Shown piece after piece: positions 13,890 through 55,948 of a DNA stretch of 64,000 nucleotides. The stretch's first letter is position 1. The number at the start of each line of letters is the position of its first letter. The notes under the pieces were generated by a model, which saw nothing but the letters and a program-made list of their open reading frames with translations, was not told the origin of the DNA and made no database searches. The stretch lies in assembly GCA_035317605.1 (NCBI GenBank), contig DATHGT010000133.1, positions 5,452 to 69,451 on the forward strand, in the 5' to 3' direction. Source of the stretch: Candidatus Acidiferrum sp. (GTDB taxonomy: Bacteria; Methylomirabilota; Methylomirabilia; Rokubacteriales; CSP1-6). A program made the position numbers and the translations under genes.

Positions 13890-16800
13890 GTGAGCCACGA
13901 CAGTCCTTCCGACGTCTGCATCGTCATCCCGGTGTTCAACAAGCGGGCCTTCACGCTCCAATGCCTCGACCGGATCTGGCGGAACACGTCGACCATCGTC
14001 CCCTACGAAGTCGTCGTGGTGGACAACGGCTCGAGTGACGGCACCCGGGAGCACTTCGAGGGCGGCGTCGTCTCGCCGCGACTGCGGTACCTCCGGAACG
14101 ACACCAACCTCGGCTTCGCCAAGGGCAACAACCTCGGAGCGCGACTGGCCCGGGGGAAGTATCTGCTGTTCCTCAACAACGACACGCTGGTCCAGCCCAA
14201 ATGGCTCGAAGACATGGTCGGCCTGGCCAGCGGCGATCCCGCGATCGGCATGGTCGGCATCAAGCAGCTGTTCCCCTACACCAGCACCATCCATCACACC
14301 GGCATCGTCTTCACCGCGGGCGCCCGTCCCCTGCACCTCTATCCGCACGCGGACGCGCGGTGGCCTCACGTCAACAAGCAGCGCGAGTATCAGGCCGTCA
14401 ACGGCGCGTGCTTCTTGATCCGGCGCGAACTGTTCGAGGCGTGCGGCGGCTTCGACGAGGGCTACGTCAACGGATACGAGGACATGGACCTCTGCCTGGC
14501 CGTGCGGCAGCGCGGCTTCAAGATCGTCTGCTGCACGTCGTCCTTCATCTATCACTACGGCCAGATCTCCGAGGGGCGGACCAGCGCCGACGCCCGCAAC
14601 GCGGCGCGCTTCGTCGCCAAGTGGGGAGCCCACGTCCGGGCCGACGACGGCGACTACGCTCACGCCGACCTGGAGGACGTTCAGCGGGTCGAGGCGGCCC
14701 GCCGCCTCGTGCCCGCGCCCCGGCCGGAGGGCGGGGCCGCGTTCCACTTCGTCGACGACCTCTCGCGGGGCAGCGCGCTGTCCTGGGCGGTGGCCGATCT
14801 CGTCCTCGCCCTCAAGCGCCTCGGGGCGCCGGTCCACATCGCGAACACGCCCCTGACGAAGACCCTCGACGAGTCGACCCGCCGGGAGCTGCAGCCCCTG
14901 ATGCGCGGCGATCGTGACCCGGACGGAGTGCACATCAAGTGGTCGCATTACTGGCCGGAGCATCTCGCCCTCGATCTGACCGGCCGGATCAACCTGGAGC
15001 TGTTCGTCATCAACTACACGTTCGCCCGGCCTGGCGCCGACCCGTGGGACTACTGGCTCCAGTGCCTGGCGCAGAATCACTATCACAAGCTGCCGCTGAC
15101 TCGGTTCTGCCAGGACGTGCTCCTCGAGGTCGGGGTGCCGGCGGCGGAGAGCCACCTCTTGCACCTCGGCTATTCCCGCGAAGTCCACGACGTGGGGCCG
15201 CCCCCGCGCCGCCCGGGGGGATTCCGCTTTCTCACCGTCACCAACTCGCACGACCTCACGCGCTACGGGACCCGACTGCTCCTGGAGGCCTACTGGGACG
15301 CCTTCGCGCGCGGGGACGACACGGTCCTGGTCGTCAAGGACTACGGGGCCACGTCGGCGGACACCACGCTCCGCGACCTCATGCGCCGGGCGAACGGCCG
15401 GGCCCGCGTCGAGTACGTCGATGCGTTCACGAGCAAGCGGGACCTGATCAGCCTCTATCGTTCCTGCGACGCCTTCGTCTCGGCCCACCGCAGCGAAGGC
15501 TTCGGCATGAAGATCCTCGACGCGCTCGCCTGTGGTCTGCCCGTGATCACCCCGCGCTTCGGCGGCCCCGCGGACTTTTGCACGCCCGAGACCAGCTTCG
15601 AGGTGGCGTTCACCCTGGAGCCGATGACCGACTGCCTCGACACCCGCTCGCTCCGGATCACCAATCAACCGCTCTGGGGTGCGCCCGACCGCAACGACCT
15701 CGTGAGGCAGCTGCGGTTCGTGGCCGGCCACCCCGCGGCCGCCGCCGCGGTGGGCGAGGCCGGACGTCGCTCGGTCGTGGATCGCTTCACCTGGGACGCC
15801 TCCGCGCGGCGGCTGGTCGCCATCGTGGACGAGATCCGCGAGGGGCAGACGCGGCGCACCACGCGACGGGCCGACCGGGCCCCGGCCCCCGCGGCCGAGG
15901 CGTCGCCCTACTGGCTCGGCTGCCGGTTGAGCGTGGTCATTCCCACCTATAACCGCAAGGACACGCTGCTCCAGTGTCTGGCCGCGCTGGAGCGGCAGTC
16001 GATCCTGCCCTCGGAGTTCGAGGTCGTGGTCGTGGACGACGGCTCGACGGACGGCACCGAGGCGGCGCTGGCCGCGCGTCAGTTCACGTTTCCCCTCGAA
16101 TACCACCGGCAGTCGAATCAGGGGCCGGGCGCCGCCCGCAACCTCGGCGTCACCCTCGCCCGCGGCGAGCTGGTGCTCTTCATCGGAGACGACATCATCG
16201 CCCACGAGCGGCTGCTGGAGCACCATCTCCTGACCCACGCGCAACATCCCGAGGCGAGCGCGTCCGTGCTCGGACACATCGACTGGCCGCCGTGGCTGAC
16301 GCCCACGCCGGTGATGGACTACGTGTGCGGGGAGGGCGGTCTTCAGTTCGCGTACCAGTTCATCCCGGATCTTCCGTCGCTCGACTACCGGTTTTTGTAC
16401 ACGAGCAACATCTCTCTGAAGCGCCGGTTTCTCCTGGAGGCGTTCGAGGCGGGCGTCCGCTTCGACCCGTGCTTCCGGTACGCGGCGTTCGAGGATTCCG
16501 AGCTGGCCCTCCGGCTCGAGTCGCGGGGACTCACCATCCACTACTCCAGCGACGCGCTCGCCTACCACGATCACTGGATGGACCTCGAAAGCTTCGCGCG
16601 CCGCGAATACAGCGCCGGGCAGATGGCGGTGGTCTTCTACCGCAAGCATCCGAAGATGGACGAGGTCCTGACCGTGCGCTGGATCGGAGACTGGGTCGAG
16701 GCCGTCGAGAAGCTCCGCGCGCAGCCGGCCTTGCTGGACAAGGTCAAGACGCTGGACGCGCACACCGACCAGTTCCTCGTCTCGCTGGAGCGGTCCCTGG

Positions 16801-17303
16801 AGGAGCTCCTGACCCTCGAAGCATCGCTCGCGTCGACCATCGGCCGCGAACGACCGCGGACCGTGGTCCGCTCGGCGCTGCACAGCGTCCTCGCCGTGAT
16901 TTTCGACGTGCATCGCACGCGGGGCAAGGTCCAGGAGTGGTACGCGATGGTCGAGGATCGCGACAAGGTCGAGAGCGCGAAGGCCCTGCTCGGCTGCCTG
17001 CGCAAGCTCGAATTCCTCGGCACCGACGGAACCGCGCTGGGACGCCTGGTTCCGGGTCTTTCCTGGGGACGTCAGGAGGTCCGGGACCTGAAGGCCCAGG
17101 CCGCCGCGCTGCAGAGCGAGCTGGGCACGCCCGTCCCCTCCGGGGCTCGCGCCCTCGTGCGCCGCGTGCTCCTGCGCGGCGGCGTCTTCAGGGCGCTACG
17201 GAACGCCGACCGCCGCCTCCAGGCCGCCCTGCACCGGCGCCAGCGGCTCGGCTGGCTCGCGGCCTATCACCGGATCCGCGGCCGGCTCAAGCGCCTCTTG
17301 TAG
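13890..17303 (+). CDS. 1137-aa three-domain glycosyltransferase (GT2 - GT4/GT-B - GT2) with C-terminal helical region
   Basis: GTG start at 13890. Domain 1 is CIVIPVFNKR...VVVVDNGSSDGT...DTLV (GT2, with DXD-like DNDT). The middle domain ...VEYVDAFTSKRDLISLYRSCDAFVSAHRSEGFGMKILDALACGLPVITP carries the GT4 EX7E-type C-terminal motif. Domain 3 is LSVVIPTYNRKDTL...VVVVDDGSTDGT...FIGDDII (GT2). The last roughly 250 aa are helical/coiled-coil-like. Confidence 0.8.
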   Translation: MSHDSPSDVCIVIPVFNKRAFTLQCLDRIWRNTSTIVPYEVVVVDNGSSDGTREHFEGGVVSPRLRYLRNDTNLGFAKGNNLGARLARGKYLLFLNNDTLVQPKWLEDMVGLASGDPAIGMVGIKQLFPYTSTIHHTGIVFTAGARPLHLYPHADARWPHVNKQREYQAVNGACFLIRRELFEACGGFDEGYVNGYEDMDLCLAVRQRGFKIVCCTSSFIYHYGQISEGRTSADARNAARFVAKWGAHVRADDGDYAHADLEDVQRVEAARRLVPAPRPEGGAAFHFVDDLSRGSALSWAVADLVLALKRLGAPVHIANTPLTKTLDESTRRELQPLMRGDRDPDGVHIKWSHYWPEHLALDLTGRINLELFVINYTFARPGADPWDYWLQCLAQNHYHKLPLTRFCQDVLLEVGVPAAESHLLHLGYSREVHDVGPPPRRPGGFRFLTVTNSHDLTRYGTRLLLEAYWDAFARGDDTVLVVKDYGATSADTTLRDLMRRANGRARVEYVDAFTSKRDLISLYRSCDAFVSAHRSEGFGMKILDALACGLPVITPRFGGPADFCTPETSFEVAFTLEPMTDCLDTRSLRITNQPLWGAPDRNDLVRQLRFVAGHPAAAAAVGEAGRRSVVDRFTWDASARRLVAIVDEIREGQTRRTTRRADRAPAPAAEASPYWLGCRLSVVIPTYNRKDTLLQCLAALERQSILPSEFEVVVVDDGSTDGTEAALAARQFTFPLEYHRQSNQGPGAARNLGVTLARGELVLFIGDDIIAHERLLEHHLLTHAQHPEASASVLGHIDWPPWLTPTPVMDYVCGEGGLQFAYQFIPDLPSLDYRFLYTSNISLKRRFLLEAFEAGVRFDPCFRYAAFEDSELALRLESRGLTIHYSSDALAYHDHWMDLESFARREYSAGQMAVVFYRKHPKMDEVLTVRWIGDWVEAVEKLRAQPALLDKVKTLDAHTDQFLVSLERSLEELLTLEASLASTIGRERPRTVVRSALHSVLAVIFDVHRTRGKVQEWYAMVEDRDKVESAKALLGCLRKLEFLGTDGTALGRLVPGLSWGRQEVRDLKAQAAALQSELGTPVPSGARALVRRVLLRGGVFRALRNADRRLQAALHRRQRLGWLAAYHRIRGRLKRLL

Positions 17304-17320: not shown

Positions 17321-19396
17321 TCAGCGAGCGATCTGGGGGAGCGGGATGTCGACCGTCGTCCCCCACGTGGTCGTTTGCGTCTGTCCGTCGACCGACCGGT
17401 TCACGAGCCACTCGCTGGTCGTGCTCCGAAAGACCGCGAGGTCGGTCTTGCCGTCACCGTCGAAGTCGCCCGGCATCGGGACGTCGCCGAGGCGCGCGCT
17501 CGCCGGCGCTCCGAAGGCGCGTGTCTGGAAGCCGCTCAGGCTTCCGAAGATGTACCACTCACCCGTCGCCTGCCGGTAGATGGCCAGGTCCGTCTTGCCG
17601 TCGCCGTCGTAATCGGCCGGCACCGGGATGTCGCCGAAGTCGTTGGGGGCGGGAGAGCCGAAGACGACGGTGCGGAAGCCCGAGGCCGTCCCATAGATCA
17701 ACCACTCGCCCGTGGCGCGGCGATAGATGGCGAGGTCCGTCTTGCCGTCGCCGTCGTAGTCGGCCGGCACCGGGATGTCGTCGAGCCCGGCCGCGCCCGG
17801 CGCGCCGAACACCACGGTGCGGAAGCCGGAGGCCGTCCCATAGATCAACCACTCGCCCGTCGCCCGGCGATAGATGGCGAGATCCGCCTTGCCGTCGCCA
17901 TCGTAGTCGGCCGGCACCGGGATGTCGTCGAGCCCACTTGACGCGGGAGCGCCGAAGACGAGGGTGCGGAAGCCGAAATCCGTCCCGTAGATCAACCACT
18001 CGCCCGTCGCTTTACGATAGATGCCCAGGTCCGTCCTGCCGTCGCCGTCGTAGTCCGCGGGCACCGGTGTGTCACCGAGCCCGCTGGACGCAGGAGAGCC
18101 GAAGACGAGGCTGTGGAAGCCGGCGGCGCTGGTGAAGGCGAACCACTCACCCGTGCTTGGACGGTACACCGTGTAGTCCGTCTTGCCGTCCCCGTCGAAA
18201 TCTCCAAACACGCGCCTGACCACGGTGACCGCGAGCGTTGCCGTCGCCGTCCGCGCCGCGGCATCGGTGATGGTGAGGGTCAGCGTCCGCGCTCCCATCT
18301 CGACCGTCGCCGTGTTCCAGGCGTAGGTCGCGGCCGCCCCGTTCACCGTCTGCGTCGAGACCACCGTCCCGTCCACCGCGAGCTTGAAGGTCGATGACCC
18401 GCTGGCCCCCGCCGATATCATGCCGACGGTCGTGACCCCGCCCACGGTCGCGCCGCCCGTGGGCGCCGTGAACGACGCGGTCAACGGCGCCAAGGGTGGC
18501 GGCGGGTTGTTGACGGTGACCGGCAGCGCCGCCGTGGCCGTCTGGCCGGCCATGGTCACCGTCGTGGTCAGCGTCCGCGGGCCGTTCCCCACCTTGGTCG
18601 TATCCCAGGTGTACGAGAGCGTGGTGCCCTGCTCGCTCTGCGTGATCAGCACCGTGCCGTCGACCGGCAGCGCGAAGGTCTTGGCCTGTCCTCCCGCGGC
18701 CGTGGTCGACAGCGCCACGGTCGGTGTGCCGCTGACCGTGGCGCCGCCGGCGGGAGACGTGAACGTCACCGTGAAGGCCACCGGCGGCGGCGTGACGACG
18801 TTCGAGACCGTGACCGTCTGGGTCGCCGTGGCGGTGCGGTTCTGGGAATCCGTCACCGTGGCCGCCAGCGTGTGCGACCCGTTGGCCACCGTGGCCGTGT
18901 TCCAGGTGAAGCTTCCGTTCGTTCCCGAGTAGATCGTCGAGCCATCCACCTTGATCGTGTACGTATATCCGCTGCCGCCGCCCGCGGTCAGCGAGACCGC
19001 CGCGGTGCCGCTCACCGTCGTCCCGCTCGTCGGATTCGTGAACGACAGGATGAGCGGAGTGGCCGTGCTGGAGGTTGCGCACACCTCGTCGGAGTACGCC
19101 GAGACGCCGCCGGTGTCGTGGGCGAGCACGCGATAGCAGTACCTCGTCCCCTCGCCGACGGAGGTGTCGACGTACTGCGTGACGCCTGCCGGGATGTCGG
19201 CGAGGGCGGCGAAGCCCGAAGCCGACGCCAGTCGGCGCTCGAGCAGGGTCGCCGCGGCGCCGTTCGAGTTGTCGACCCACGATGCCGTGAGCTGGACGCC
19301 CGCGGCTTCGGCGGCTCCGAGACTGACGGCCGTGATCATCAGGGCGAGGAGCAGCAGGTGAACGGTGACCGAAGCGAATCGAGCCTTCGCGACCAT
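17321..19396 (-). CDS. secreted repeat protein: signal peptide, fibronectin-III/Ig-like domains, and six C-terminal FG-GAP/VCBS-like repeats
   Basis: 691 aa. ATG at 19396 has GGGAG 7 nt upstream on the minus strand. The signal peptide is MVAKARFASVTVHLLLLALMITAVSLGAAEA. There are three roughly 90-aa Ig-like repeats (T.SFT.P.GGATVSG...TATA.L.VTV), then six 49-aa repeats DYDGDGKTDLAIYRRATGEWLIYG...FGAP...GLDDIPVP. Confidence 0.7.
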   Translation of the reverse strand: MVAKARFASVTVHLLLLALMITAVSLGAAEAAGVQLTASWVDNSNGAAATLLERRLASASGFAALADIPAGVTQYVDTSVGEGTRYCYRVLAHDTGGVSAYSDEVCATSSTATPLILSFTNPTSGTTVSGTAAVSLTAGGGSGYTYTIKVDGSTIYSGTNGSFTWNTATVANGSHTLAATVTDSQNRTATATQTVTVSNVVTPPPVAFTVTFTSPAGGATVSGTPTVALSTTAAGGQAKTFALPVDGTVLITQSEQGTTLSYTWDTTKVGNGPRTLTTTVTMAGQTATAALPVTVNNPPPPLAPLTASFTAPTGGATVGGVTTVGMISAGASGSSTFKLAVDGTVVSTQTVNGAAATYAWNTATVEMGARTLTLTITDAAARTATATLAVTVVRRVFGDFDGDGKTDYTVYRPSTGEWFAFTSAAGFHSLVFGSPASSGLGDTPVPADYDGDGRTDLGIYRKATGEWLIYGTDFGFRTLVFGAPASSGLDDIPVPADYDGDGKADLAIYRRATGEWLIYGTASGFRTVVFGAPGAAGLDDIPVPADYDGDGKTDLAIYRRATGEWLIYGTASGFRTVVFGSPAPNDFGDIPVPADYDGDGKTDLAIYRQATGEWYIFGSLSGFQTRAFGAPASARLGDVPMPGDFDGDGKTDLAVFRSTTSEWLVNRSVDGQTQTTTWGTTVDIPLPQIAR
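17395..18280. repeat. tandem 147-bp coding DNA repeats (about 6 units) encoding the FG-GAP-like blades
   Basis: Near-identical units, for example ccgtcccatagatcaaccactcgcccgt...ggcgagGtccg starting at 17686, 17833 and 17980 (period 147 nt). Adjacent units are roughly 85-90% identical at DNA level. Other frames show matching periodic ORFs (17521..18135). Confidence 0.7.
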
Positions 19397-19828
19397 AGCG
19401 AGTCTCCCATTGCGCGAAGACCGCCATGGCCCCCTTCGTTTCGGTAACCCGGCTATCAGACCTCATGTCTGACCCGTGGCTTTGCGTCCCCGCCTCACGA
19501 CGGGTTTGCCTTTATCGGGGAAGGGGTCTTCGTTCTGGCAGAAGCCTAGAGCAACACTCGTACCGGACCGGATGCGAGTGCGACAACACGCCTTAAATAG
19601 TTGATTTCTTACGTACGAAGTACATTTCAGCAATCACCGTGGAGGGCGTGCTGCCATTTTCTGTCCAGCATCCGCCGGGCGGGGTGACACGATCACGATC
19701 GACTGCGCGCCAGGTAAACCCCTGAACCGGATTCCCAAACCGTCGCGTCGTGGGTTAGAGTACCCGCGACGATGTTCTCTGCCGTATTCACCCCTAGCCC
19801 AACCGTGAAAGGTTCGAGCGTCCGTTAG
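19397..19828. promoter_or_regulatory. 430-bp non-coding divergent leader/promoter region with AT-rich core
   Basis: No ORF of 60 aa or more. An AT-rich stretch acgccttaaatagttgatttcttacgtacgaagtacatttcagcaatca (about 19590..19640) stands out in a 70% GC background. It contains a TTGATT hexamer and short palindromes TACGTA/CGTACG. A stem CGTCGCG-N17-CGCGACG lies at 19740..19770. Confidence 0.3.
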
Positions 19829-21616
19829 GTGGAAGTCACCGATGGCCCCATGAGAGTCGCGGCGCTCGCCGGGCCATATGTGACCGCGCTGCTCGTCGCC
19901 GTCGTGTTGACCCTCGTGTGCGAGCGCGTGGCCCGTCGCTTCCGGTTGATCGCGCACCCGCGCGAGGATCGATGGCACCGTGAGAGCGTCCCGCTGCTCG
20001 GCGGCCTGGCCATCATGCTGACGGTCGCCGTGGTGGGCGCCGGATGGGGGGCCCGACTTGGTCGGTTTGCGCCGCTGCTGGTGCTGTCCTTCGCCATGGG
20101 CGTCGTGGGACTCGTCGACGACGTCAGGACGCTGCGCCCCCAGACCAAGCTGGCCGCACAGATCGTCGGCGCGGCCGTCCTGATCCAGTTCGGAGCCCTC
20201 CTCCCGCTCACCCAGTTCGCGATCGTCAATCTGCTCCTCACCCTGTTCTGGATGGTGGCGATCACCAATGCCTTCAACCTCCTCGACAACATGGACGGCC
20301 TGGCGGCCGGCGTGGCCGTCCTCACCGCGGTGTTCCGGCTGTGGCTCTTTCTCATCGACGGCGACGGCGACGGCGCCTGGATGATGGCGGCGCTCGTCGG
20401 CGCGGCGGGCGGGTTCCTCATCCGCAACTATCCGCCGGCCAAGATCTTCATGGGCGACGCGGGAAGCCTCTTCCTGGGCTTCTTTCTGGGCGGCGTCTCG
20501 CTGGTCAGTAGCTACGCCCAAACTCGCGGGGTCATCGCCGTGCTCGTCTTCCCGATCCTGCTCGTCCTCGTGCCCATTCTCGATACCTCATTCGTCACCG
20601 TGACGCGCCTGCTCAGCGGGCGATCGGTCGCCCAGGGCGGCCGGGATCATACCTCCCACCGGCTCATGGCCCTGGGGATCAGCGAGCGGAAGGCGCTCAG
20701 CCTGCTTCTGGGCGTTTCGACGGTCTCGGGGGTCCTGGCGATCCTGTCGTATCAGCAGGGGTTCCGATACTCGATCATCCTGCTCGCCTTGCTCATCATC
20801 TGGCTCGCCCTTCTGGGCGTACATCTCAGTCGCGCGCACGTCGTCACGGCTCAGGCCGGCGGGGAGGCGGCGGCCACCTTCCGTTTCGTGAACGACTTCC
20901 CGTACAAGCGTCACGTCGTTACCCTGGGCATCGATGCGATGTTGATCGTGGTGGCCTACTATGCGTCGTACCTGCTCCGCTTCGAAGGGACGTTCGAAGC
21001 CGAACGAGCGAACTTCATGCGCAGCGTCGGGCCGATCCTCGGCCTGCAGATCCTGGCTCTTGCCGTCTTCGGCAGCTATCGCGGAATCTGGCGTTACACG
21101 AGCCTTTCCGACCTTGTCCGTCTGTGCCGCGCGGCGACGGCCGGCGTGGCCGCCAGTGTCCTGTACCTGGTGTTCACCACGCGGTTCGAGACGTTTTCGA
21201 GAGCGGTGTTCGTGCTCGACTGGGCCCTCTTGATCCTCCTTCTCGCCGGAAGCCGGGTGGCGTTCCGTCTCCTCGGTGACTGGCTGCGGCCGCGATCGAG
21301 AACGTCCCGGCGGGCATTGATCTACGGCGCCGGCGACGGTGGCGCCCTCACCCTGCGTGAGCTGCTGAACAATGCCGGTCTCGCGCGGCGCCCGGTGGGC
21401 TTCCTCGACGACGATCGGCACAAGCGAGGCCGGCGGATCTACGGGCTCCCCATCCTGGGTGGGCTCGACCTCGCCGAGGAGATCTTCACGGCCCAGCAGG
21501 TCGAAGAGGTGATCGTCGCCTCACAGAAGATCCCGCCCGAACGGCTCGAGCAGCTGAGCGCCCTGTGCACGGCCCGCGGCGTCCTGGTGACGCGGGCGTC
21601 GCTGTGGATCCAGTGA
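19829..21616 (+). CDS. WecA/MraY-family (Glycos_transf_4) polyprenyl-phosphate HexNAc-1-phosphate transferase fused to C-terminal membrane segment plus CoA_binding-type Rossmann domain
   Basis: 595 aa. Residues 1-330 carry the 11-TM MraY/WecA core with NAFNLLDNMDGLAAG and FMGDAGSLFLGF motifs. Four more TM helices follow, then ALIYGAGDGGALTLRELL...PVGFLDDDRHKRGRRIYGLPILGGLD...VEEVIVA. This resembles the nucleotide/CoA-binding domain found at the N-terminus of WbaP/PglF/WbpM-type proteins. Confidence 0.75.
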   Translation: MEVTDGPMRVAALAGPYVTALLVAVVLTLVCERVARRFRLIAHPREDRWHRESVPLLGGLAIMLTVAVVGAGWGARLGRFAPLLVLSFAMGVVGLVDDVRTLRPQTKLAAQIVGAAVLIQFGALLPLTQFAIVNLLLTLFWMVAITNAFNLLDNMDGLAAGVAVLTAVFRLWLFLIDGDGDGAWMMAALVGAAGGFLIRNYPPAKIFMGDAGSLFLGFFLGGVSLVSSYAQTRGVIAVLVFPILLVLVPILDTSFVTVTRLLSGRSVAQGGRDHTSHRLMALGISERKALSLLLGVSTVSGVLAILSYQQGFRYSIILLALLIIWLALLGVHLSRAHVVTAQAGGEAAATFRFVNDFPYKRHVVTLGIDAMLIVVAYYASYLLRFEGTFEAERANFMRSVGPILGLQILALAVFGSYRGIWRYTSLSDLVRLCRAATAGVAASVLYLVFTTRFETFSRAVFVLDWALLILLLAGSRVAFRLLGDWLRPRSRTSRRALIYGAGDGGALTLRELLNNAGLARRPVGFLDDDRHKRGRRIYGLPILGGLDLAEEIFTAQQVEEVIVASQKIPPERLEQLSALCTARGVLVTRASLWIQ

Positions 21617-21670: not shown

Positions 21671-22840
21671 TCATCTGGACTTCTCGGAGCGCAGCCGCGT
21701 ATACAGGTCATCGATGTCGGCCAGGAGCCGATCGGCGTTGAGCGCGGGATAGACGCGCTTGCGCCCGGCGCCGCCCATCGCGCGGGCGCGATCAGGATCG
21801 GCGAGGAGGCCGACGATGGCGCTCGCGAGGGCACGAGCGTCTCCGGGCGGAGCGAGCCGTCCGCTGATTCCATCCTCGACGAGGTCCGGAACGCCTCCCA
21901 CGCTGGTCGCGACGACCGGCCGCGCCGCTGCCATGGCCTCGATCAGTGACACCGGCAACCCCTCGTTGCGCGAGGTGAGCGCGACGACATCGAGGTCGAC
22001 GTACACGCGATCCAGGTCTCCGCGCCAGCCGAGAAAATGCACGCGCCCCTCGAGACCAAGCCGCCCGGTCAGCTCCTCCAGTTCTCGCCGCCGCTCGCCA
22101 TCGCCCACGATGGCGAACCGGCACTCGGGAACGGTGCGATGGATCTCGGCGGCCGCGGCCAGGAAGAGCTCGTGGGCCTTGATGGGAACCAGGCGCGCGA
22201 CGATCCCCACGATCGGGGTGTGCGGCCCGACGGCCAATTCGCGACGGAGTTGACCGCGGAGGCTTTCGCAGCGCAAGAAGGGGTCGAGGTCGAGGCCCAG
22301 GGGTACGGTTTCGAAGCGGGTGGGCGTTCCGATGCCCATGGCCAGCAACTCCTGCCGGACGCGCTCGCTCACCGCCAGGAGTCGGTGGGTCCGACGGGCC
22401 AGCCATCGCTCGATCGCCACGAAGAACCGGGTCGTCGAGGGCGAGAAGTATCCGTGCAGGACGTGGCCGTGGTACGTGTGCACGACGGTCGGGACCCGAC
22501 AGATCAGCGCGGCGATGCGGCCGAGGGTCCCCGCCTTCGCGGTATGGGTGTGGACGATGTCGGGCCGCACCCGGCGCATCAGCCGCACGAGCTGCGCGAG
22601 GGCAACGGCGTCCTGCCCGGCCCTGATGTTTCGTCCGAGAGCGGGAATCATCTCCAACCGATCGAGCCGCTTGGCCTGCAGCTCGAGAAAGTTGCCCTCG
22701 GTCGCCTCCTCCGACCCGGTCACCAGGGTGGAGCTATAGCGGCTCGTGTCGAGGCGCTCGGTGAGGAGCACCGCGTGGAGCGCCGGTCCGCCGATGTTCA
22801 GCCGGGCGATGACCCGCAGGAGGCGGATGCGCTCAGACAC
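21671..22840 (-). CDS. glycosyltransferase family 4 (GT-B)
   Basis: 389 aa. The N-terminus RIRLLRVIARLNIGGPALHAV is a Glyco_trans_4-like_N start. The C-terminal motif is EGLPVSLIEAMAAARPVVATSVGGVPDLVEDGISG. It is the last gene of the long minus-strand array. Confidence 0.8.
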   Translation of the reverse strand: MSERIRLLRVIARLNIGGPALHAVLLTERLDTSRYSSTLVTGSEEATEGNFLELQAKRLDRLEMIPALGRNIRAGQDAVALAQLVRLMRRVRPDIVHTHTAKAGTLGRIAALICRVPTVVHTYHGHVLHGYFSPSTTRFFVAIERWLARRTHRLLAVSERVRQELLAMGIGTPTRFETVPLGLDLDPFLRCESLRGQLRRELAVGPHTPIVGIVARLVPIKAHELFLAAAAEIHRTVPECRFAIVGDGERRRELEELTGRLGLEGRVHFLGWRGDLDRVYVDLDVVALTSRNEGLPVSLIEAMAAARPVVATSVGGVPDLVEDGISGRLAPPGDARALASAIVGLLADPDRARAMGGAGRKRVYPALNADRLLADIDDLYTRLRSEKSR

Positions 22841-24749
22841 CGCATGTGTCCGGCGGGCCGACGGGGCAGGGCTGGTCGATGAAGGTTCGATGCCACAGCT
22901 CGAGCATCAGCAGCGCCCACAGCTGGCGGTGCCGGGGCTGCCCCGCCTCGTGGGCCTCGAGCAGCTTGCGCACACCCTCCGGGTCGAAGTAGCCGCGCTG
23001 CCGGGCGCGGGAGTCCAGCAGCACGTCGTGGGTCATTTGACGCAGCTCCTGGCGCAGCCACCGATCGATCGGTACCGCGAATCCCATCTTGGCCCGGCCG
23101 AGGATGCTCTCGGGGAGCACGCCCCGCATCAGCGCCTTGACCAGGTACTTCTGCGTCGTTCCCCGGAGCTTCATCCGGGAGGGCAGCGCCGCCGCGAACT
23201 CGACGACCCGATGATCGAGGAACGGCGACCGCAGCTCGAGCGAGTTCGCCATGCTGGCGATGTCCATCTTCACGAGGAGGTCGTCGGGCAGGTAGAGGTG
23301 GACGTCGGCCGAGGCCGCCGCCTCGGCGTCGCCGTCGCCATCGGCCGACGCAAAGAGCGCGTCGAGCCGGGCCAGTGGCGTTCCCCCGGCAACCGCGGAC
23401 TGGAACGCCGGGGTGCACAGCGCGCGGCGAGTCTCCTCGTCGAACACGACCATCCAGCGTGCGTACCGGCGCGCTCGCTCGAGGCCGAGGGCCTCGACGA
23501 ACCGGCGGAGCGCGTGCACGCGCGACTTGGGGTCGGTGTGGGGCAGCCACGAGGCGCCGTGGACCACGCCGGCCAGCAGCGGACGCGGCAGGGCGTCGGC
23601 GAGCCGGCCGAGCCGAGCGGCCTGGTAGCGATCGTAGCCGAGGAAGCTTTCGTCGCCACCGTCGCCGTTCAGGGCGACCGTCACCAGGCGGCGCGCCATC
23701 TGACACACGGCATACGACGGCACCGCGGACGAGTCGGCGAACGGCTCGTTGTAGTGCCAGACCAGCCGCGGCAGCAGCTCGACGGCATTCGGCCGCACGA
23801 CCAGCTCGTGGTGGTCGGTGTCGAAGCGCCGGGCCACTTCGCGCGCGTACCGCAGCTCATCGTAATCCGCGTCCTCGAACCCGATGGAGAACGTGGTGAT
23901 CCGTCCCGAGGTGACCTGACGCATGAGGGCGACCACCGTGCTGGAGTCGAGGCCGCCGCTCAGCAGCGCGCCCACGGGGACGTCGGCGATGAGCCGCAGC
24001 CGCACGGCCTCCCGCAACAGCGCCCCCAGTTCCTCGATCAGATGGTCTTCGCGCTCCTCGCGCTTCGGCGAATAGCGGAGCGTCCAGTAGCGTTCGACGC
24101 TCAGCGCGCCCTCGTGAAGACGGAGGTAGTGGGCGGGCGGCAACTTGCGCAGCCCGCGGAACGCCGAGAGCGGCGACGGGACGTAGCCGTAGGTCAAATA
24201 GTGATCGATGGCGGAGGGGTCGGCCTCCGCGGTCACGTCGGGATCCTGAAGGATCGTCTTGGGCTCGGAGCCGAAGACCAGGTGTTCCCCGTTGAAATGA
24301 TAGAAGAGCGGCTTCTTACCCAGCCGGTCACGGGCCACGATCAGGCTGCCGTCGCGGGCGTCCCACAGCGCGAGGGCGAACATCCCCCACAGCCGATCCA
24401 GACACTTGATTCCCTCGTCCTCGTAGAGGCGGAGGATCGTCTCGGTATCGCTGTCCGACCGGAAGCGATGACCCCGCCGCTCGAGGTCGGCGCGGAGGGC
24501 CTGGAAGTTGTAGATCTCGCCGTTGAAGACGAGGTGCAGGGACCCGTCGTCGTTGGTCATCGGCTGCCGCGCGCGCGGCGAGAGGTCGATGATGGCCAGC
24601 CGTCGGCTGCCGAGACCGACGTGACCGTTCACCCAGAGACCTTCGTCGTCCGGCCCGCGATGGCGGATCGTGTCGAGCATGCGCTGGACCAGTCGAGGGT
24701 CGACGGGCCGGGAGCGGTCGGTGTAGACCTTACCGGCGATTCCGCACAC
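22833..24749 (-). CDS. asparagine synthetase (glutamine-hydrolysing)-like amidotransferase, copy 1 (WbpS-like)
   Basis: 638 aa. It has an N-terminal Cys-2 (MCGIAG) Ntn glutaminase domain and the PP-loop SGGLDSS. Full-length AsnB architecture. Confidence 0.85.
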   Translation of the reverse strand: MCGIAGKVYTDRSRPVDPRLVQRMLDTIRHRGPDDEGLWVNGHVGLGSRRLAIIDLSPRARQPMTNDDGSLHLVFNGEIYNFQALRADLERRGHRFRSDSDTETILRLYEDEGIKCLDRLWGMFALALWDARDGSLIVARDRLGKKPLFYHFNGEHLVFGSEPKTILQDPDVTAEADPSAIDHYLTYGYVPSPLSAFRGLRKLPPAHYLRLHEGALSVERYWTLRYSPKREEREDHLIEELGALLREAVRLRLIADVPVGALLSGGLDSSTVVALMRQVTSGRITTFSIGFEDADYDELRYAREVARRFDTDHHELVVRPNAVELLPRLVWHYNEPFADSSAVPSYAVCQMARRLVTVALNGDGGDESFLGYDRYQAARLGRLADALPRPLLAGVVHGASWLPHTDPKSRVHALRRFVEALGLERARRYARWMVVFDEETRRALCTPAFQSAVAGGTPLARLDALFASADGDGDAEAAASADVHLYLPDDLLVKMDIASMANSLELRSPFLDHRVVEFAAALPSRMKLRGTTQKYLVKALMRGVLPESILGRAKMGFAVPIDRWLRQELRQMTHDVLLDSRARQRGYFDPEGVRKLLEAHEAGQPRHRQLWALLMLELWHRTFIDQPCPVGPPDTCGV

Positions 24750-27246: not shown

Positions 27247-28227
27247 TCACCGCCGGGGCTCCGGCACCCCGCCGGGCATCAGCGTGGTATCGCCCAGGAA
27301 CAGACCGAGCTTGGTGGCGATGCCGCGGGAGAGGGCGAACAGGCGCGGGGGCAGAACGAAATGGACGGCATCGATGAGCGCGAACAGTGGGAACCCCCGA
27401 CGGAGCTCGCGCTCGAGCGCGCGCACTCTCGCCCGCCCCCCTCTGGCGATCCGATACTGGAGGTGGAGGAGATACTTGAGATGCCGCCGACGGCAGGGGC
27501 GTGAGAAGCGGCCGGCGTGGCGGAGATAGGCCCGGCGATAACCGCGGTAGATGTCGTCGTACCGCCGGGAGATGCGGTCGCGCACCTCGTCGTGGTACGT
27601 GGCCAGGTGGTGCTGGAGCACGTGGATGGGGCCGACCTCGCTCATGCGCAGCCAGAAATCCCAGTCCTGGCAGGAGGCCAGGTCGTCGGTGATCCCGCCG
27701 CTCCGCCGAAGCGCGCTCCGGCGGGCCATGGCGAAGGAGAAGCTGCCGCACACGTTCCCCCACTGGAGCTCGTCGAGCGTCACCTCCGCGGGCGTGCTGG
27801 AACGCCTGCCCCCGATCTTCGCGCGGCGGGCGGTGTGCGCACCCTGTCTGACGAACAGGCAGGAGACCGCCACGTGCCGCGCGTGGGATTGCAGGAAGGA
27901 GACTTGACGCGACGTCTTGTCGGGCAACCACTCGTCGTCGTCGTCGAGGAACGCCACGAAATCGGCCGTCGCGCGGGCGATGCCGACATTGCGGGCGCGG
28001 GCGCCCCCCTGCCGAGCCTCGTGCCGGACGTAACGGAGCTGCAGGTCCGGGTGCGCAGCCGCGAAGGCCTTCACGGTCTCGCCGGTGGCGTCGGTCGACG
28101 CGTCGTCGACCACGATGACCTCGAGCGGCCGGTAGGTCTGACCCACGACGCTCTCCAGGGCGCGGCGCAGGAGCGCCGCGCGGTTCCTCGTGGGGATCAC
28201 GATCGAGACCACCGGCGTCGTGGACAT
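27247..28227 (-). CDS. glycosyltransferase family 2
   Basis: The start ATG 28227..28225 (MSTTPVVSIVIPTRNRA...) forms a TGATG overlap with the AsnB copy-2 stop. VVDDASTDAT and the DDDDEW (DXD) motif are present. Confidence 0.8.
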   Translation of the reverse strand: MSTTPVVSIVIPTRNRAALLRRALESVVGQTYRPLEVIVVDDASTDATGETVKAFAAAHPDLQLRYVRHEARQGGARARNVGIARATADFVAFLDDDDEWLPDKTSRQVSFLQSHARHVAVSCLFVRQGAHTARRAKIGGRRSSTPAEVTLDELQWGNVCGSFSFAMARRSALRRSGGITDDLASCQDWDFWLRMSEVGPIHVLQHHLATYHDEVRDRISRRYDDIYRGYRRAYLRHAGRFSRPCRRRHLKYLLHLQYRIARGGRARVRALERELRRGFPLFALIDAVHFVLPPRLFALSRGIATKLGLFLGDTTLMPGGVPEPRR

Positions 28228-30074
28228 CAGGCCGGGACCAGCACCTGGCGCCGCCACTCGGCCAACAGGGTCAGACCGAACAGGAGGTTGGCGTCACCGG
28301 ACGCTCCCCGGAGATCCGTCCAGCTCGCCGCGGCCGCCGTCACGTCGATGCGGTCGCGGAGGAATTCGTCGCTCTTCCAGACCCGGTCCCACGGCTCGTC
28401 GCTCTCCCGCGCCGCCTCGGCGAGCCAGTGGCCGACGGGGGCCCCGAATCCGCGCTTGGGGATCGCGAGCACTTCCTTCGGCAGGAGGTCACCGATGGCC
28501 TGCCGGAACAGCCGCTTGGTGGCCCCTCCCGCGACGCGATATCGGTCGGGCAGCGCGAACATCCATTCCACCAGCCGATGGTCGAGCAGCGGCACCCGGC
28601 CTTCCACCGACGCGGCCATCGTCATCTTGTCGAGGAGCGGCAGCAGGTCGCCGGCCAGGTACGTGTGCAGATCGAAATACGTCCGGCGGCTGACCGCGGT
28701 GACCAGCCGCGGATCGTGGAAGATCGGCGACAGCAGAGCGTCCAGTCGCTCGGTCAGGCGCCGCGTCCAGGCCGGGTCCCTCAGCAGACGACTCATGAGA
28801 TCGACACGTCCGGAGATCCGGCAGAGGTAGTCGACCACCGGGCTTCGCAGGCGCAGGGCCTGCGCGCTGCCGCCGGCCCCGAGCGCGAGGCCGGCGAGAC
28901 GGCGGAGGCCCCGCGGCATCGCCTCGAGACCGCGCCGCCACGCCTGGTCACTATAGCGGGGATAACCCCCGAACACCTCGTCGCCCCCGGTGCCGTTGAG
29001 AATGACGGTGATCCCGTCTTCGCGGGCCAGCCGCGACAGGAGCAGGGTCGGCACCGCCGCGGAATCGCAGACGGGCTCGTCGATGGAGGCGGCGACCTCG
29101 GGCAGCGCGGCGATCGCCGCCTTGGCGTCGAGGAGCAGCTCGCGATGGCGCGCGCCGTGGCGGGCGGCCACCATGCGCGCGGCCGGCCGCTCGTCGTAGA
29201 GGTGTCCCTCGAACCCGACCGAGAAGGTCCGCACCGGCTGGGTCACCTGCTCGGCCATCAGCGCGACCACGGTGCCGCTGTCCAGTCCGCCGCTGAGGAA
29301 GATGCCCAGCGGGACGTCGCTGCGCTGCTGGAGGCGAATCGCGTCGCGCAGCAGCTCCAGCAGGCGCTCCCTCGCCTCTCGCTCGTCGATCCGAGCGTCG
29401 CCGAAGCGCTCGACGTCCCAGTACCGTCGGGTCTCGATGCGGCCGTGTCGGTCGATCTTGAGGTAGTGCGCGGGCGGGAGCTTCCGGATCCCCTCGACGA
29501 GGCAGTCGGGGGCCGGGACGTACATCATGAGCAGGTACATGAGGAACGCGGTCTCGTCGATCGTGCGCCGGCCCGTCAGCTCGACGAGCGAGCGCAGCTC
29601 GGAGGAGAAGGCGAAGCGTCCGGGCTCGGCGACGTAGAACAGCGGCTTGATGCCGAGCCGGTCGCGGGCCACGAACAGCTCGCGCTCCCGCCGGTCCCAG
29701 ACGGCGAACGCGAACATGCCGTTGAGATCGGCGAGACAGGCCGGGCCCCGCTCCTCGTACAGGTGCAGCAGGACCTCGGTGTCGCTGTGCGTCCGGAACG
29801 TGTGCCGGCCGACCAAGTCGGCCCGCAGCTCGAGGAAGTTGTAGATCTCGCCGTTGAACACGATGCAGTAGCGCCCGTCCTCGCTCTCGATCGGCTGGTG
29901 CCCGCCCTTGACGTCGATGATCGAGAGGCGGCGGATGCCGAAGGTCAACCCGCCGTCCGTGAAGCTGCCCTGATCGTCCGGGCCACGGTGCACCATCCGG
30001 TCCAGCATCGACTGCAGCGCCCGCGTCTCAGGCGGGGCGCCGTCGAACCGGTGGATCCCGGCGATCCCGCACAT
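28227..30074 (-). CDS. asparagine synthetase (glutamine-hydrolysing)-like amidotransferase, copy 2
   Basis: 615 aa with MCGIAG and SGGLDSG. It is paralogous to 22833..24749 (roughly 45-50% identity by eye). Confidence 0.85.
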   Translation of the reverse strand: MCGIAGIHRFDGAPPETRALQSMLDRMVHRGPDDQGSFTDGGLTFGIRRLSIIDVKGGHQPIESEDGRYCIVFNGEIYNFLELRADLVGRHTFRTHSDTEVLLHLYEERGPACLADLNGMFAFAVWDRRERELFVARDRLGIKPLFYVAEPGRFAFSSELRSLVELTGRRTIDETAFLMYLLMMYVPAPDCLVEGIRKLPPAHYLKIDRHGRIETRRYWDVERFGDARIDEREARERLLELLRDAIRLQQRSDVPLGIFLSGGLDSGTVVALMAEQVTQPVRTFSVGFEGHLYDERPAARMVAARHGARHRELLLDAKAAIAALPEVAASIDEPVCDSAAVPTLLLSRLAREDGITVILNGTGGDEVFGGYPRYSDQAWRRGLEAMPRGLRRLAGLALGAGGSAQALRLRSPVVDYLCRISGRVDLMSRLLRDPAWTRRLTERLDALLSPIFHDPRLVTAVSRRTYFDLHTYLAGDLLPLLDKMTMAASVEGRVPLLDHRLVEWMFALPDRYRVAGGATKRLFRQAIGDLLPKEVLAIPKRGFGAPVGHWLAEAARESDEPWDRVWKSDEFLRDRIDVTAAAASWTDLRGASGDANLLFGLTLLAEWRRQVLVPA

Positions 30075-53808: not shown

Positions 53809-54794
53809 CGCGCGCCCAGCTCCAGGACGGCCTCGGCCACACGGTGCGCCCCCCCGCCATCGACGAGGCTTCGGCCACGCCGACTCATCGCCTCCCGAAG
53901 GGCCGCGTCCGCGGCCAGACCGCGCAAGGCTTCGCCCACTCGTCGGCCGACGCCCTCGTCGTCGACGTCCCCCGCAAAGCGGAAGACGCCTTCCGCATCC
54001 CACGAGCGCGACTGCGGCGTCTGGTTGGGAGCCACGGCCACCAGGACCGCCGGTACGCCCATGGCGGCGAGTTCGTACGTCACTTGACCGCCTGCGCTCA
54101 GGGCCAGGTCCGCCGTCACCATCAGGTCCGCGAGGGACTTGGGATGGTGATGCACGGTCACGAGCTCCTCGGGAACACCGAGAGGCCCGCTGGCCAGAGG
54201 ACCCACCACCGCATCGATCGTCACCGCGGGCAACGCGGCGCGAACCCAGCTCAGGAACCGGCTCATCGAAGCCTTCGGATCCGCTCCTCCGACCGTCACC
54301 AGCACTCGGAGCACCGGGTGGGAGGCGGCAGGCCTTCCGTCCCGCGCGAACTCCGGACGGAGCAGCGCGTAGCGCGGCCCCAGGAGCAGCCGCGCGTCGG
54401 CCGACCCGCGGTAGGCGGAGACGCCCACGCCGGGTGCCGTGTTGACGACGACGTCGGCGGGGATCTCGCGATCGGCCAGGTCGTCGATCACGACCAGCGG
54501 GCCCGCTTGCCGCAAGCGCGCCAGGTCCTCCCTCCGGAGCTCGTAGGAGTCGGCCACGAACACCCGCGGCGCCGCTCGGTCGACTTCATCGAGCCACGAC
54601 GTGACGCCGCCTCCGTCGATCGCCTGAACCCTGAAGCCGGCGTCGGCAATGAGCGCGGCCACGGTCGGTTCCGGATTAACGACGAAGCGCGACGCCGCTC
54701 CCAGGTTGCGGAGCGTTTCCGCGAGGGTCAGGCAACGACGGACGTGTCCGAAGCCCTCCACACGACCTCCGCGCGTGACGAAGACGACGGTCAC
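53805..54794 (-). CDS. pseG: UDP-2,4-diacetamido-2,4,6-trideoxy-hexose hydrolase PseG-like (MurG-like GT-B fold)
   Basis: GTG start 54794..54792 in a GTGA overlap. VVFVTRGGRVEGFGHVRRCLTLAETL matches the PseG/SpsG N-terminal GxGHxxR signature. TVGGADPKA and the C-terminal sugar-nucleotide block are present. The upstream 374 codons of the track ORF are spurious. Confidence 0.7.
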   Translation of the reverse strand: MTVVFVTRGGRVEGFGHVRRCLTLAETLRNLGAASRFVVNPEPTVAALIADAGFRVQAIDGGGVTSWLDEVDRAAPRVFVADSYELRREDLARLRQAGPLVVIDDLADREIPADVVVNTAPGVGVSAYRGSADARLLLGPRYALLRPEFARDGRPAASHPVLRVLVTVGGADPKASMSRFLSWVRAALPAVTIDAVVGPLASGPLGVPEELVTVHHHPKSLADLMVTADLALSAGGQVTYELAAMGVPAVLVAVAPNQTPQSRSWDAEGVFRFAGDVDDEGVGRRVGEALRGLAADAALREAMSRRGRSLVDGGGAHRVAEAVLELGAR

Positions 54795-55948
54795 GCGCTT
54801 CGCGCTTCCAGGACCCGTCGAACGGTGTCCACCACGCGGTCGACGTCGGCATCGTTCAACTCGGGAAACATCGGGAGCGAGAGGATGCTCGCGTACGCGG
54901 CCTCCGCGACCGGGCATTGCCCCGGGGACGTCCCGAAGCGCTTCTGATAGAAGGGATGCAGGTGCACGGGAATGTAGTGGACGTTGACGCCGAGGCCCTC
55001 CGCCCGCAAGGCCGCGAACACGTCCGCCCGATCGGTACGCAGTCGCTGCAGACGGAGGCGCACGACGTAAAGGTGGTAGGCATGCCCAGCCGCGGGGCGG
55101 ACGGCGAGGGGGGCCAGCCAGGGCATCCCTTGGAAGGCCGCGTCGTACCGGCGGGCCAGCTGCCGCCGGCGCGCGACCCAACCCTCCAGCTTGCGGAGCT
55201 GGCTGATCCCCAGGGCGCACTGCAGGTCGGTCAAGCGGTAGTTGAATCCCAGGTCCACCATCTCGTAGAACCAGGATCCCGCGGCCTCCCGCTGTCGATG
55301 ATCGCTGGTGATGCCGTGATTGCGGAAGATCCGCATCCGCCGCGCCCGCTCCGCGTCGTTGGTGGTGATCATCCCGCCTTCGCCGGTCGTGATGTGCTTG
55401 ACGGGATGAAAGCTGAAGGTCGACAGGTCGGCGAGCGTCCCCACGGGGACGCCCGACAGGTCCCCGCCGAGCGCGTGGCAGGCGTCGGCGATCAGCACGA
55501 GCCCGTGCGCGACGGCCAACTCCCGGAGCTTCACGTAGTCGCAGGGCTGACCGGCGTAGTCCACCGCCACGATGGCTTTCGTCCGTGCCGAGAGCCGCGA
55601 CTCCACCGAGGCGGGATCCACCAGCAAGGTGTCCGGGTCGACGTCGGCGAACACCGGCGTGCCGCCCTCGTAGACGACGCAGTTCGCGCTCGCCGCGAAG
55701 GTGAGCGCGGGCACGATCACCTCGTCGCCTGCCCCGATCCCGATCGCATGGACGGCCGCGTGCAGTGCCGCGGTCCCGTTGCTGACCGCCACCGCCTCCG
55801 TCGCTCCCACGAAATCCGCGAAGGCCCGCTCGAACTGTCCCACCAGCGGCCCCGTGGTCAGGTATTCGGAGCGCAGAACGCGGACGACGGCCTCGATGTC
55901 GTCGTCGCCGAGCCACTGCCTGCCGTACGGGAGGTGCCGGTTGGTCAC
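54791..55948 (-). CDS. pseC: DegT/DnrJ/EryC1/StrS-family PLP aminotransferase (PseC-like UDP-4-keto-6-deoxy-HexNAc transaminase)
   Basis: GTG start 55948..55946 in a GTGA overlap. The N-terminus LPYGRQWLGDDDIEAV is PseC-like. The PLP-Lys region is FSFHPVKHITTGEGG. Confidence 0.85.
   Translation of the reverse strand: MTNRHLPYGRQWLGDDDIEAVVRVLRSEYLTTGPLVGQFERAFADFVGATEAVAVSNGTAALHAAVHAIGIGAGDEVIVPALTFAASANCVVYEGGTPVFADVDPDTLLVDPASVESRLSARTKAIVAVDYAGQPCDYVKLRELAVAHGLVLIADACHALGGDLSGVPVGTLADLSTFSFHPVKHITTGEGGMITTNDAERARRMRIFRNHGITSDHRQREAAGSWFYEMVDLGFNYRLTDLQCALGISQLRKLEGWVARRRQLARRYDAAFQGMPWLAPLAVRPAAGHAYHLYVVRLRLQRLRTDRADVFAALRAEGLGVNVHYIPVHLHPFYQKRFGTSPGQCPVAEAAYASILSLPMFPELNDADVDRVVDTVRRVLEARSA

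Follow-up and report, generated by a model that had tools for sequence, protein, structure and literature searches.

A polytopic WecA-like phosphoglycosyltransferase with a C-terminal membrane-anchored Rossmann module: a widespread fusion with a possible regulatory or adaptor role

Why would a polytopic initiating phosphoglycosyltransferase (PGT) of the WecA/MraY type carry, behind its catalytic core, an accessory module that is otherwise placed in front of unrelated enzymes? The question is raised by a gene at positions 19829–21616 (plus strand) of a 64,000-nucleotide stretch of DNA from Candidatus Acidiferrum sp. (contig DATHGT010000133.1), the whole of which was analysed and is called the window here. 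Undecaprenyl phosphate is scarce, and an initiating PGT ties it to a single glycan pathway; the regulation of these enzymes is poorly understood. To our knowledge, the characterised members of the WecA/WbpL/TagO type, of about 340–400 amino acids (aa), do not have the extension seen here, which consists of a bundle of four transmembrane (TM) helices (4TMH) and a small Rossmann-like domain. This 4TMH plus PF13727 unit, the latter termed DUF (domain of unknown function), is the hallmark of large monotopic PGTs, and it is also found on PglF-like dehydratases, an association called puzzling by the authors who described it (PMC10942596). We find that the fusion of this module to a polytopic PGT (polyPGT) is a widespread but, as far as found, undescribed architectural variant of a well-known enzyme family. 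Its parts are laid out as follows, with conservation values referring throughout to an alignment of 139 diverse relatives.

19829..21616, plus strand: whole gene, polytopic PGT with C-terminal 4TMH and Rossmann module (open reading frame list, identical NCBI protein, homologue lengths).
19829..20830, plus strand: polytopic PGT core, aa 1–334, 11 TM helices, MraY/WecA/GPT fold (Pfam, NCBIfam, Foldseek, AlphaFold2 model).
20117..20122, plus strand: Asp97-Asp98 (DD) motif after TM helix 3, aligned with D117/D118 of Aquifex MraY (4j72) and 99% conserved.
20267..20302, plus strand: N147-A-F-N150-L-L-D153-N-M-D156-G-L, the NxxNxxDxxDGL superfamily signature, aligned with MraY chains; N147, N150, D153 and D156 are 99–100% conserved.
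20831..20905, plus strand: cytoplasmic linker, aa 335–359, predicted to be disordered and poorly conserved (predicted local distance difference test score, pLDDT, <50 at aa 338–358; mean column conservation 0.27).
20906..21283, plus strand: four-TM-helix bundle, aa 360–485 (NCBIfam from aa 368, AlphaFold2 models, Foldseek to 8T53).
21284..21613, plus strand: cytoplasmic Rossmann-like domain, aa 486–595, the DUF or CoA_binding_3 domain (PF13727, PDB profile search, Foldseek, model).
21326..21343, plus strand: G500-A-G-D-G-G505, GxGxxG loop after strand 1, a putative nucleotide-phosphate binding loop, aligned with IYGAGSAG of 3nkl.
21398..21415, plus strand: G524-F-L-D527-D-D529, acidic residues ending strand 2, aligned with FIDDDRKK of 3nkl; D527 is 96% and D528 89% conserved.

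An earlier note on this DNA, made from the letters alone, had described a transferase core for N-acetylhexosamine (HexNAc) 1-phosphate followed by a CoA-binding-type domain, and the domain scan bears this out with both families far above their cutoffs: Glycos_transf_4 (PF00953) matches aa 82–227 with an E-value of 4.1e-33 (115.1 bits against a cutoff of 27), and CoA_binding_3 (PF13727) matches aa 414–564 with an E-value of 1.2e-15 (58.4 bits against a cutoff of 25). The two lie in a single open reading frame (ORF) of 595 aa with zero internal stops, running from a GTG at 19829 to a stop codon at 21614–21616, and the GC content at its three codon positions (0.69/0.45/0.87) is like that of real genes of this 68% GC window. 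An identical protein is recorded from two independent sources, P0001 and P0002. The NCBI copy, P0002, which is labelled as a soil metagenome-assembled genome (MAG) of "Candidatus Acidoferrum sp.", is 588 aa long and begins 7 codons downstream of GTG 19829; since this copy begins there and most homologues are 585–588 aa long, the probable true start is ATG 19850, giving 588 aa, rather than GTG 19829. Minus-strand genes flank the PGT gene on both sides, the next one downstream being separated from it by a gap of 54 bp that holds no dehydratase remnant, and a promoter/terminator scan around the PGT gene gave nothing informative.

The core has the features of a working member of its superfamily. 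Both hydropathy and the AlphaFold2 model of the full-length protein (41 homologues in the alignment, mean pLDDT 80, predicted template modelling score 0.75) place 11 TM helices in the core, between about aa 3 and 334, where pLDDT is mostly 77–95. The core sequence matches MraY 5jnq with an E-value of 2e-13, and in a Foldseek search with the whole model the core matches MraY and human DPAGT1 (GPT) with E-values of 4e-8 to 5e-5 and template modelling scores (TMt) of 0.58–0.79, the best values being an E-value of 3.6e-8 and a TMt of up to 0.79 for MraY and an E-value of about 4e-6 for DPAGT1. All of the superfamily motifs are present (D97-D98, NxxNxxDxxDGL, FMGD210 and D273-H274..H277), as they are in polyPGTs of the WecA/WbpL/TagO type, with which the protein also shares the 11-TM MraY/GPT-like core and a place in a surface-glycan locus beside genes for family 4 glycosyltransferases (GT4), nucleotide-sugar dehydrogenases and epimerases. 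The residues D97, D98, K107, N147, N150, D153, D156, D210, D252, R260, D273, H274 and H277 are conserved at 99–100%, and the conserved core residues align with active-site residues of MraY. Because the motifs are intact, aligned to the MraY active site and this strongly conserved, we conclude from the sequence that the core is functional and catalytically competent. By analogy with its relatives, it would use a UDP-sugar as donor, place its HexNAc-type sugar-1-phosphate on undecaprenyl phosphate at the cytoplasmic face and release uridine monophosphate (UMP). The ECA_wecA model (TIGR02380) aligns to aa 20–340 at 120.8 bits, under its equivalog cutoff of 326.05, and judged by sequence the PGT is a relative of WecA, yet no WecA equivalog or strict orthologue, with GlcNAc (N-acetylglucosamine) specificity not established.

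Behind the linker, the four extra TM helices described in the earlier note are seen in both hydropathy and the AlphaFold2 model, at aa 360–385, 389–413, 426–451 and 458–485. Several polar residues of this bundle are conserved, namely D369 (99%, within a TM helix), Y417, W421 and R476. The domain that follows is modelled as a Rossmann-type fold of five strands with a beta-alpha-beta arrangement at aa 494–589 (pLDDT about 80–90), with 6 residues between the last strand and the end of the protein. Foldseek agrees with the model on this fold, which removes the doubt, raised earlier, that the C-terminal region might not form a Rossmann domain at all. The stretch from aa 368 to 587 aligns only to positions 2–218 of the EPS_sugtrans, WcaJ and WbaP models (TIGR03025, TIGR03023 and TIGR03022), which is their N-terminal, non-catalytic part; for TIGR03025 the match over positions 2–218 has an E-value of 4.7e-22, whereas the large-monotopic-PGT models score far under their cutoffs and their matches end near position 220 of 445–456. 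Neither Bac_transf nor a Polysacc_synt_2/SDR (short-chain dehydrogenase/reductase) domain was found in the window PGT protein with Pfam and NCBIfam.

Searched against the PDB, the sequence profile of the tail finds the N-terminal domain of a WbpM-like protein (3nkl, E 3.6e-8), VioB (E 0.003) and WbaP (E about 0.02). At the level of structure, the tail of the whole model also matches WbaP (8T53) and 3nkl, and a tail-only model has 8T53 as its best match (E 5.6e-6 over 254 columns), with Rex-family Rossmann domains among its further matches; the superposition on 3nkl has a root-mean-square deviation of 2.0–2.3 Å over 97–98 columns, with a TMt of 0.65–0.69. NCBIfam, the PDB profile and Foldseek thus all support the earlier statement that the module is normally N-terminal in WbaP-type PGTs and WbpM/PglF dehydratases, with which the literature agrees (PMC10942596). 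The two motifs that had been quoted for the Rossmann domain, GAGDGG and GFLDDD, lie at 21326–21343 and 21398–21415. The glycine loop is well conserved (G500 98%, A501 94%, G502 90%, G505 92%), and the acidic end of strand 2 is the position that usually contacts the ribose hydroxyls in Rossmann folds. It is also important to ask on which side of the membrane these motifs would lie. Because there are 11 + 4 helices, because the charged loops obey the positive-inside rule by hydropathy and because the topology of the family is known, the Rossmann domain is predicted to be cytoplasmic, on the same side as the active site, with all catalytic motifs on one face.

The comparison with known systems brings out what is particular to this arrangement. 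The large monotopic PGTs (Salmonella WbaP, E. coli WcaJ, Myxococcus EpsZ; 8T53) share with the window protein the cytoplasmic, membrane-anchored 4TMH + PF13727 module, and they too start a polyprenol-linked glycan and release UMP. In WbaP, however, the module is N-terminal to a monotopic Bac_transf domain, whereas in the window protein it is C-terminal to an unrelated polytopic core and nothing comes after it. In sequence, the Rossmann domain is closest to the PglF/WbpM/CapD dehydratases (3nkl), which differ in having a Polysacc_synt_2/SDR domain after the module where the window protein stops at the DUF end. The N-domains of PglD/NeuD/VioB, and Rex, have the same small Rossmann layout and GxGxxG loop (weak matches to NeuD_NnaD at E 1.6e-4, to VioB at 0.003 and to Rex at about 1e-4 with Foldseek), but this is a similarity of fold only; they have no TM bundle and other partner domains, and they do not belong to the same family.

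The fusion is neither rare nor confined to one lineage. An exhaustive search was made of 1.84 billion representatives of clusters at 50% identity, and the best 150 matches, all with E-values of 1e-88 or less, were assessed. About 138 of these 150 are full-length fusions, 33–51% identical to the query and matching it in one stretch from about residue 20 to about residue 590, with lengths of about 560–665 aa or longer. Among the best 120 clusters at 90% identity, all 120 are the same protein family, full-length or fragmentary, nearly all of about 585–595 aa and already annotated with PF13727 and PF00953. The architecture had been proposed as something to look for in related taxa, and it is found across many phyla: the best 80 loci in GTDB species genomes come from Acidobacteriota, Planctomycetota, Omnitrophota, Desulfobacterota, Chloroflexota, Actinomycetota, a Heliomicrobium MAG and Pseudomonadota MAGs, and on re-derived ORFs Pfam finds both domains in 9 of 10 diverse loci sampled across phyla. 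The members found here are from uncultured organisms in every case, and a search of a plasmid collection gave no match to the fused PGT at an E-value of 1e-20 or below. The fusion therefore spans more than 130 distinct 50%-identity clusters and is stable and old. Mean column conservation is 0.52 in the core, 0.47 in the 4TMH bundle, 0.44 in the Rossmann domain and 0.27 in the linker, values that indicate a module under selection and conserved about as well as the catalytic core. Automatic Pfam annotation of such proteins already exists, with current labels reading merely "WecA" or "hypothetical", which the present description corrects.

Further information on the module comes from relatives that carry a third domain. 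Six of the best 150 representatives at 50% identity are 888–975 aa long, and three of them (P0144, P0148 and P0152; 936–975 aa) have Glycos_transf_4, CoA_binding_3 and Polysacc_synt_2 in one chain according to Pfam. By its domain order, such a chain reads as a polytopic PGT followed by a complete membrane dehydratase of the PglF/WbpM/CapD type (4TMH + DUF + Polysacc_synt_2). P0152 is a genuine gene because it is identical on two independent contigs from two samples (L084 10001–12868 and L085 8444–11311), and its locus holds Wzx/Wzy, a DegT aminotransferase and a hexapeptide acetyltransferase, a PglF-PglE-PglD-like gene set. In P0211 (888 aa) a polysaccharide deacetylase and DUF3473 follow the module; P0168 (928 aa, from a SAR324 MAG) has a repeat-rich extension there that resembles tetratricopeptide repeats by eye, and P0155 (936 aa) a degenerate Rossmann-like extension with no Pfam match at 1e-5. 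In this sense the C-terminus of the module acts as a place where soluble domains that modify sugars are added. In a neighbour-joining tree of the 139 sequences, the dehydratase-bearing proteins fall into one clade (4 long members and one of 604 aa) that lies 15 nodes deep among two-domain proteins, and because this clade is small and deeply nested, the two-domain form looks ancestral in this sample. That the window protein might be a tri-domain PGT-dehydratase that lost its last domain is not favoured, given this nesting and the absence of a remnant downstream of the gene.

With this in mind, we consider it somewhat probable that the protein is an active initiating PGT of the WecA/WbpL kind in which the module acts as a nucleotide-responsive regulatory element, as an assembly adaptor, or as both, in analogy to WbaP. 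The flexible linker tethers the accessory module, 4TMH bundle and cytoplasmic Rossmann domain together, to the 11-TM core; the Rossmann domain would bind a uridine nucleotide or UDP-sugar at its conserved GxGxxG...D site; and this binding may tune PGT activity, for instance through feedback by UMP, or oligomerisation, or both, as has been proposed for WbaP. PolyPGTs likewise release UMP, so the same feedback logic could apply to them. In the cryo-EM structure of WbaP the DUF, by way of a swapped beta-hairpin (Asn251–Gln268), supplies the greater part of the dimer contacts; UMP, UDP and UTP stabilise the DUF on its own, and the half-maximal inhibitory concentration of UMP for WbaP is 4.1 uM (PMC10942596). 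From this homologous system we infer the identity of the ligand, the regulation and the oligomeric state. The metabolite sensing that the earlier note had suggested as one purpose of the fusion gains from the nucleotide binding of the WbaP domain, and its other suggestion, coupling to a nucleotide-sugar-modifying enzyme, gains from the relatives whose polypeptide continues beyond the module into a dehydratase domain; both stay at the level of proposals.

Several points weigh against the regulatory or adaptor role. Even for WbaP, inhibition by UMP at an allosteric site, rather than at the active site, has the status of a proposal. The WbaP-type hairpin appears to be missing here, so the dimerisation mechanism of WbaP is not simply transferable: extrapolating from the tail-profile alignment, in which window residue 544 corresponds to WbaP residue 196, the window protein ends near WbaP residue 247 or so, just short of the hairpin, and probably lacks that dimerisation device. 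In apparently ending before such a hairpin it would resemble EpsZ (PMC10942596, PMC12802240), for which a 2025 paper reports that the hairpin is absent and proposes that a response regulator promotes dimerisation (PMC12802240). The tail-only model is of modest confidence in its TM part (pLDDT 50–70), the WecA equivalog score is far under its cutoff, and the sugar donor cannot be read from the sequence. Finally, searches for PF13727, CoA_binding_3 and polyPGT fusions, in a literature that was incompletely covered, found no paper describing the module on a polytopic PGT; the role in dimerisation and UMP sensing was assigned to it in 2024 for monotopic PGTs only (PMC10942596).

A different use of the same parts seems possible, if rather unlikely: the module might chiefly be a docking or channelling scaffold that keeps nucleotide-sugar-modifying enzymes close to the PGT and lets a labile UDP-sugar intermediate pass straight from them to it. 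Candidate partners would be a 4,6-dehydratase of the PglF/WbpM type, a deacetylase or another module-bearing protein, and the window protein would be the "empty adaptor" form of a PGT-dehydratase fusion. The third domains described above speak for such a scaffold, both the Polysacc_synt_2 domain that P0144, P0148 and P0152 join to PGT and module in one chain, in the case of P0152 on two independent contigs and within a PglF-PglE-PglD-like gene set, and the deacetylase that follows the module in P0211. So does the module profile, which matches WbpM-like 3nkl (E 3.6e-8) better than WbaP (E 0.02), and there is precedent in WreU, a PGT documented to use the direct PglF product UDP-4-keto-6-deoxy-GlcNAc (PMC11626204). 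The tri-domain forms, however, make up one small and deeply nested clade, with the two-domain form apparently ancestral; the 64-kb window has no second module gene, and such a gene occurs within 10 kb of the fused PGT in only 2 related loci; and the only 4,6-dehydratase of the window is a soluble PseB equivalog at a distance of 34 kb. Docking is also not exclusive of nucleotide sensing.

It is much less likely, and indeed improbable, that the Rossmann domain binds coenzyme A (CoA) or NAD(P) and performs or supports a second reaction, for example an oxidation, a reduction or an acyl transfer, on the sugar once it is linked to the lipid. The GxGxxG loop with its acidic residue is a pattern typical of dinucleotide binding, NAD(H)-binding Rex repressors and dehydrogenases are among the domain's neighbours in structure, and one homologue has weak GFO_IDH_MocA and TrkA_N matches. 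Yet the domain comprises only about 100 residues, without the substrate-binding or catalytic half of such enzymes, in sequence it stands nearest to the N-domains of WbpM-like, VioB/PglD-like and WbaP proteins, which are non-catalytic, and the "CoA-binding" label has been contradicted experimentally for WbaP, where uridine nucleotides are bound (PMC10942596). Hardly credible is, last, an artefact or relic, with separate genes run together by a mistake in sequencing or assembly, or with a C-terminal half that survives without a function. Such breaks do occur in assemblies, as is seen in P0098, a relative 65% identical to the window protein whose gene (L083 3001–4730) is split by a frameshift into a 486-aa ORF with PGT and 4TMH and an overlapping 102-aa ORF with the Rossmann part; we accordingly reject the 486-aa P0098 as a natural module-less form and regard it as an assembly error or pseudogene. 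The window ORF, however, is continuous and its protein is the same from the independent sources P0001 and P0002, and the architecture of about 590 aa is shared by more than 130 clusters and across many phyla, with its module conserved about as strongly as the core. On these grounds the possibility considered in the earlier note, that the C-terminal region is a separate gene behind a missed stop, is rejected, and so is a relic.

A regulatory or adaptor role in this one family leads to a more general idea, which we put forward tentatively: the 4TMH bundle and Rossmann domain may form a portable sensor of uridine nucleotides or UDP-sugars and an assembly adaptor, recruited independently by monotopic PGTs, PglF-type dehydratases and polytopic PGTs. 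The module is now seen on the second PGT superfamily, whose fold and mechanism differ but whose UDP-sugar substrates and UMP product are the same, so that the module has a third, mechanistically unrelated class of host beside the WbaP and PglF types. Its presence on both PGT superfamilies argues that it works independently of the catalytic fold. If the idea is true, a WecA-type enzyme would gain UMP feedback, a dock for sugar-modifying enzymes, or both; the tri-domain relatives would be PGT-dehydratase channelling machines; and there would be an answer to the question posed with the WbaP structure, why unrelated enzymes share the module (PMC10942596). The family offers a natural test system, in which the full-length protein can be compared with a module-less truncation and with the tri-domain PGT-dehydratase relatives. 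The practical impact is moderate.

One earlier statement is unsupported, namely that a nearby regulator ends in a C-terminal domain of the same type. The only candidate for that regulator is a winged helix-turn-helix protein of 196 aa encoded on the minus strand at 57998–58588, 36 kb from the PGT gene, whose residues 6–95 match the model of MarR regulators associated with exopolysaccharide (TIGR04176, E 2e-16) and also HTH_24. It has about 100 extra C-terminal residues with a GTGEAA motif, which may form some small Rossmann-like domain. No match to CoA_binding_3 (PF13727) was found in it at an E-value of 5 or below, and no informative PDB match; BLASTP against the C-terminal domain of the PGT gives an E-value of 0.53, and hhalign against the Rossmann domain of the PGT gives a probability of 9%, with the alignment in register (KRVALCGTGEAAELT vs RRVLIYGAGDGGELT).

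The surroundings fit an initiating enzyme of glycan assembly, as the 64-kb window is one very large surface-glycan locus. Its genes include those for a Wzy_C protein, an AlgX/MBOAT O-acylation pair, several glycosyltransferases of families GT4 and GT2, a heparinase II/III-like protein, a nucleotide-sugar dehydrogenase and epimerases. Neither a Bac_transf gene nor a second PF00953 or PF13727 gene was found in the window, and the fused PGT is the sole initiating enzyme found for its glycan locus. In Methylomirabilota-like relatives the gene stands in a compact row of GT4 or AsnB, PGT-module, nucleotide-sugar dehydrogenase, one or more epimerases and UbiA. Across phyla, the genes that recur within 10 kb of the fused PGT are those for GT4 (35 loci), AsnB-type proteins (26) and an epimerase 58–63% identical to that at 61706–62665 of the window (35). 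A nearby partner protein with the same module is not a general feature of these loci; a second 4TMH/DUF-module gene lies within 10 kb in only 2 related loci (L029 15698–17143 and L075 5363–7732, both on the minus strand), and the protein from L029, of 482 aa with an N-terminal module, has about the size of a large monotopic PGT.

Two AsnB-type glutamine amidotransferases are encoded in the window itself, at 22833–24749 and at 28227–30074 (both on the minus strand), the first of which resembles the model for the amidotransferase of the XrtA/PEP-CTERM system (627 bits, under the cutoff of 817). Since AsnB-type genes recur beside the fused PGT in 26 related loci, their presence suggests an amidated uronic-acid sugar in the glycan. 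The region 50589–56949 (minus strand) holds a set for a nonulosonic acid of the pseudaminic-acid type. Its PseB equivalog scores 522 bits where the cutoff is 408, and its other members are a DegT aminotransferase, a GNAT protein, NeuB and a protein that fuses a cytidylyltransferase to an aldo/keto reductase. About 270 nt are shared by the long DegT ORF and the PseB ORF, and the true DegT start is probably further downstream.

Upstream of the PGT gene, the divergent intergenic region contains a full-length c-di-GMP-I-GGC riboswitch aptamer (RF03167) at 19439–19519 on the minus strand, found with Rfam at 76.4 bits against a gathering score of 59 (E 9e-18). It was considered as a regulator of the PGT gene and rejected, as it is encoded on the other strand, about 43 nt upstream of the start of a minus-strand Big/FG-GAP surface-protein gene (17321–19396), and is part of the leader of that gene. 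Directly upstream of that Big/FG-GAP gene, at 13890–17303 (plus strand), is the gene for a protein of 1137 aa that joins GT2, GT1 (GT4-type) and GT2 domains in one chain.

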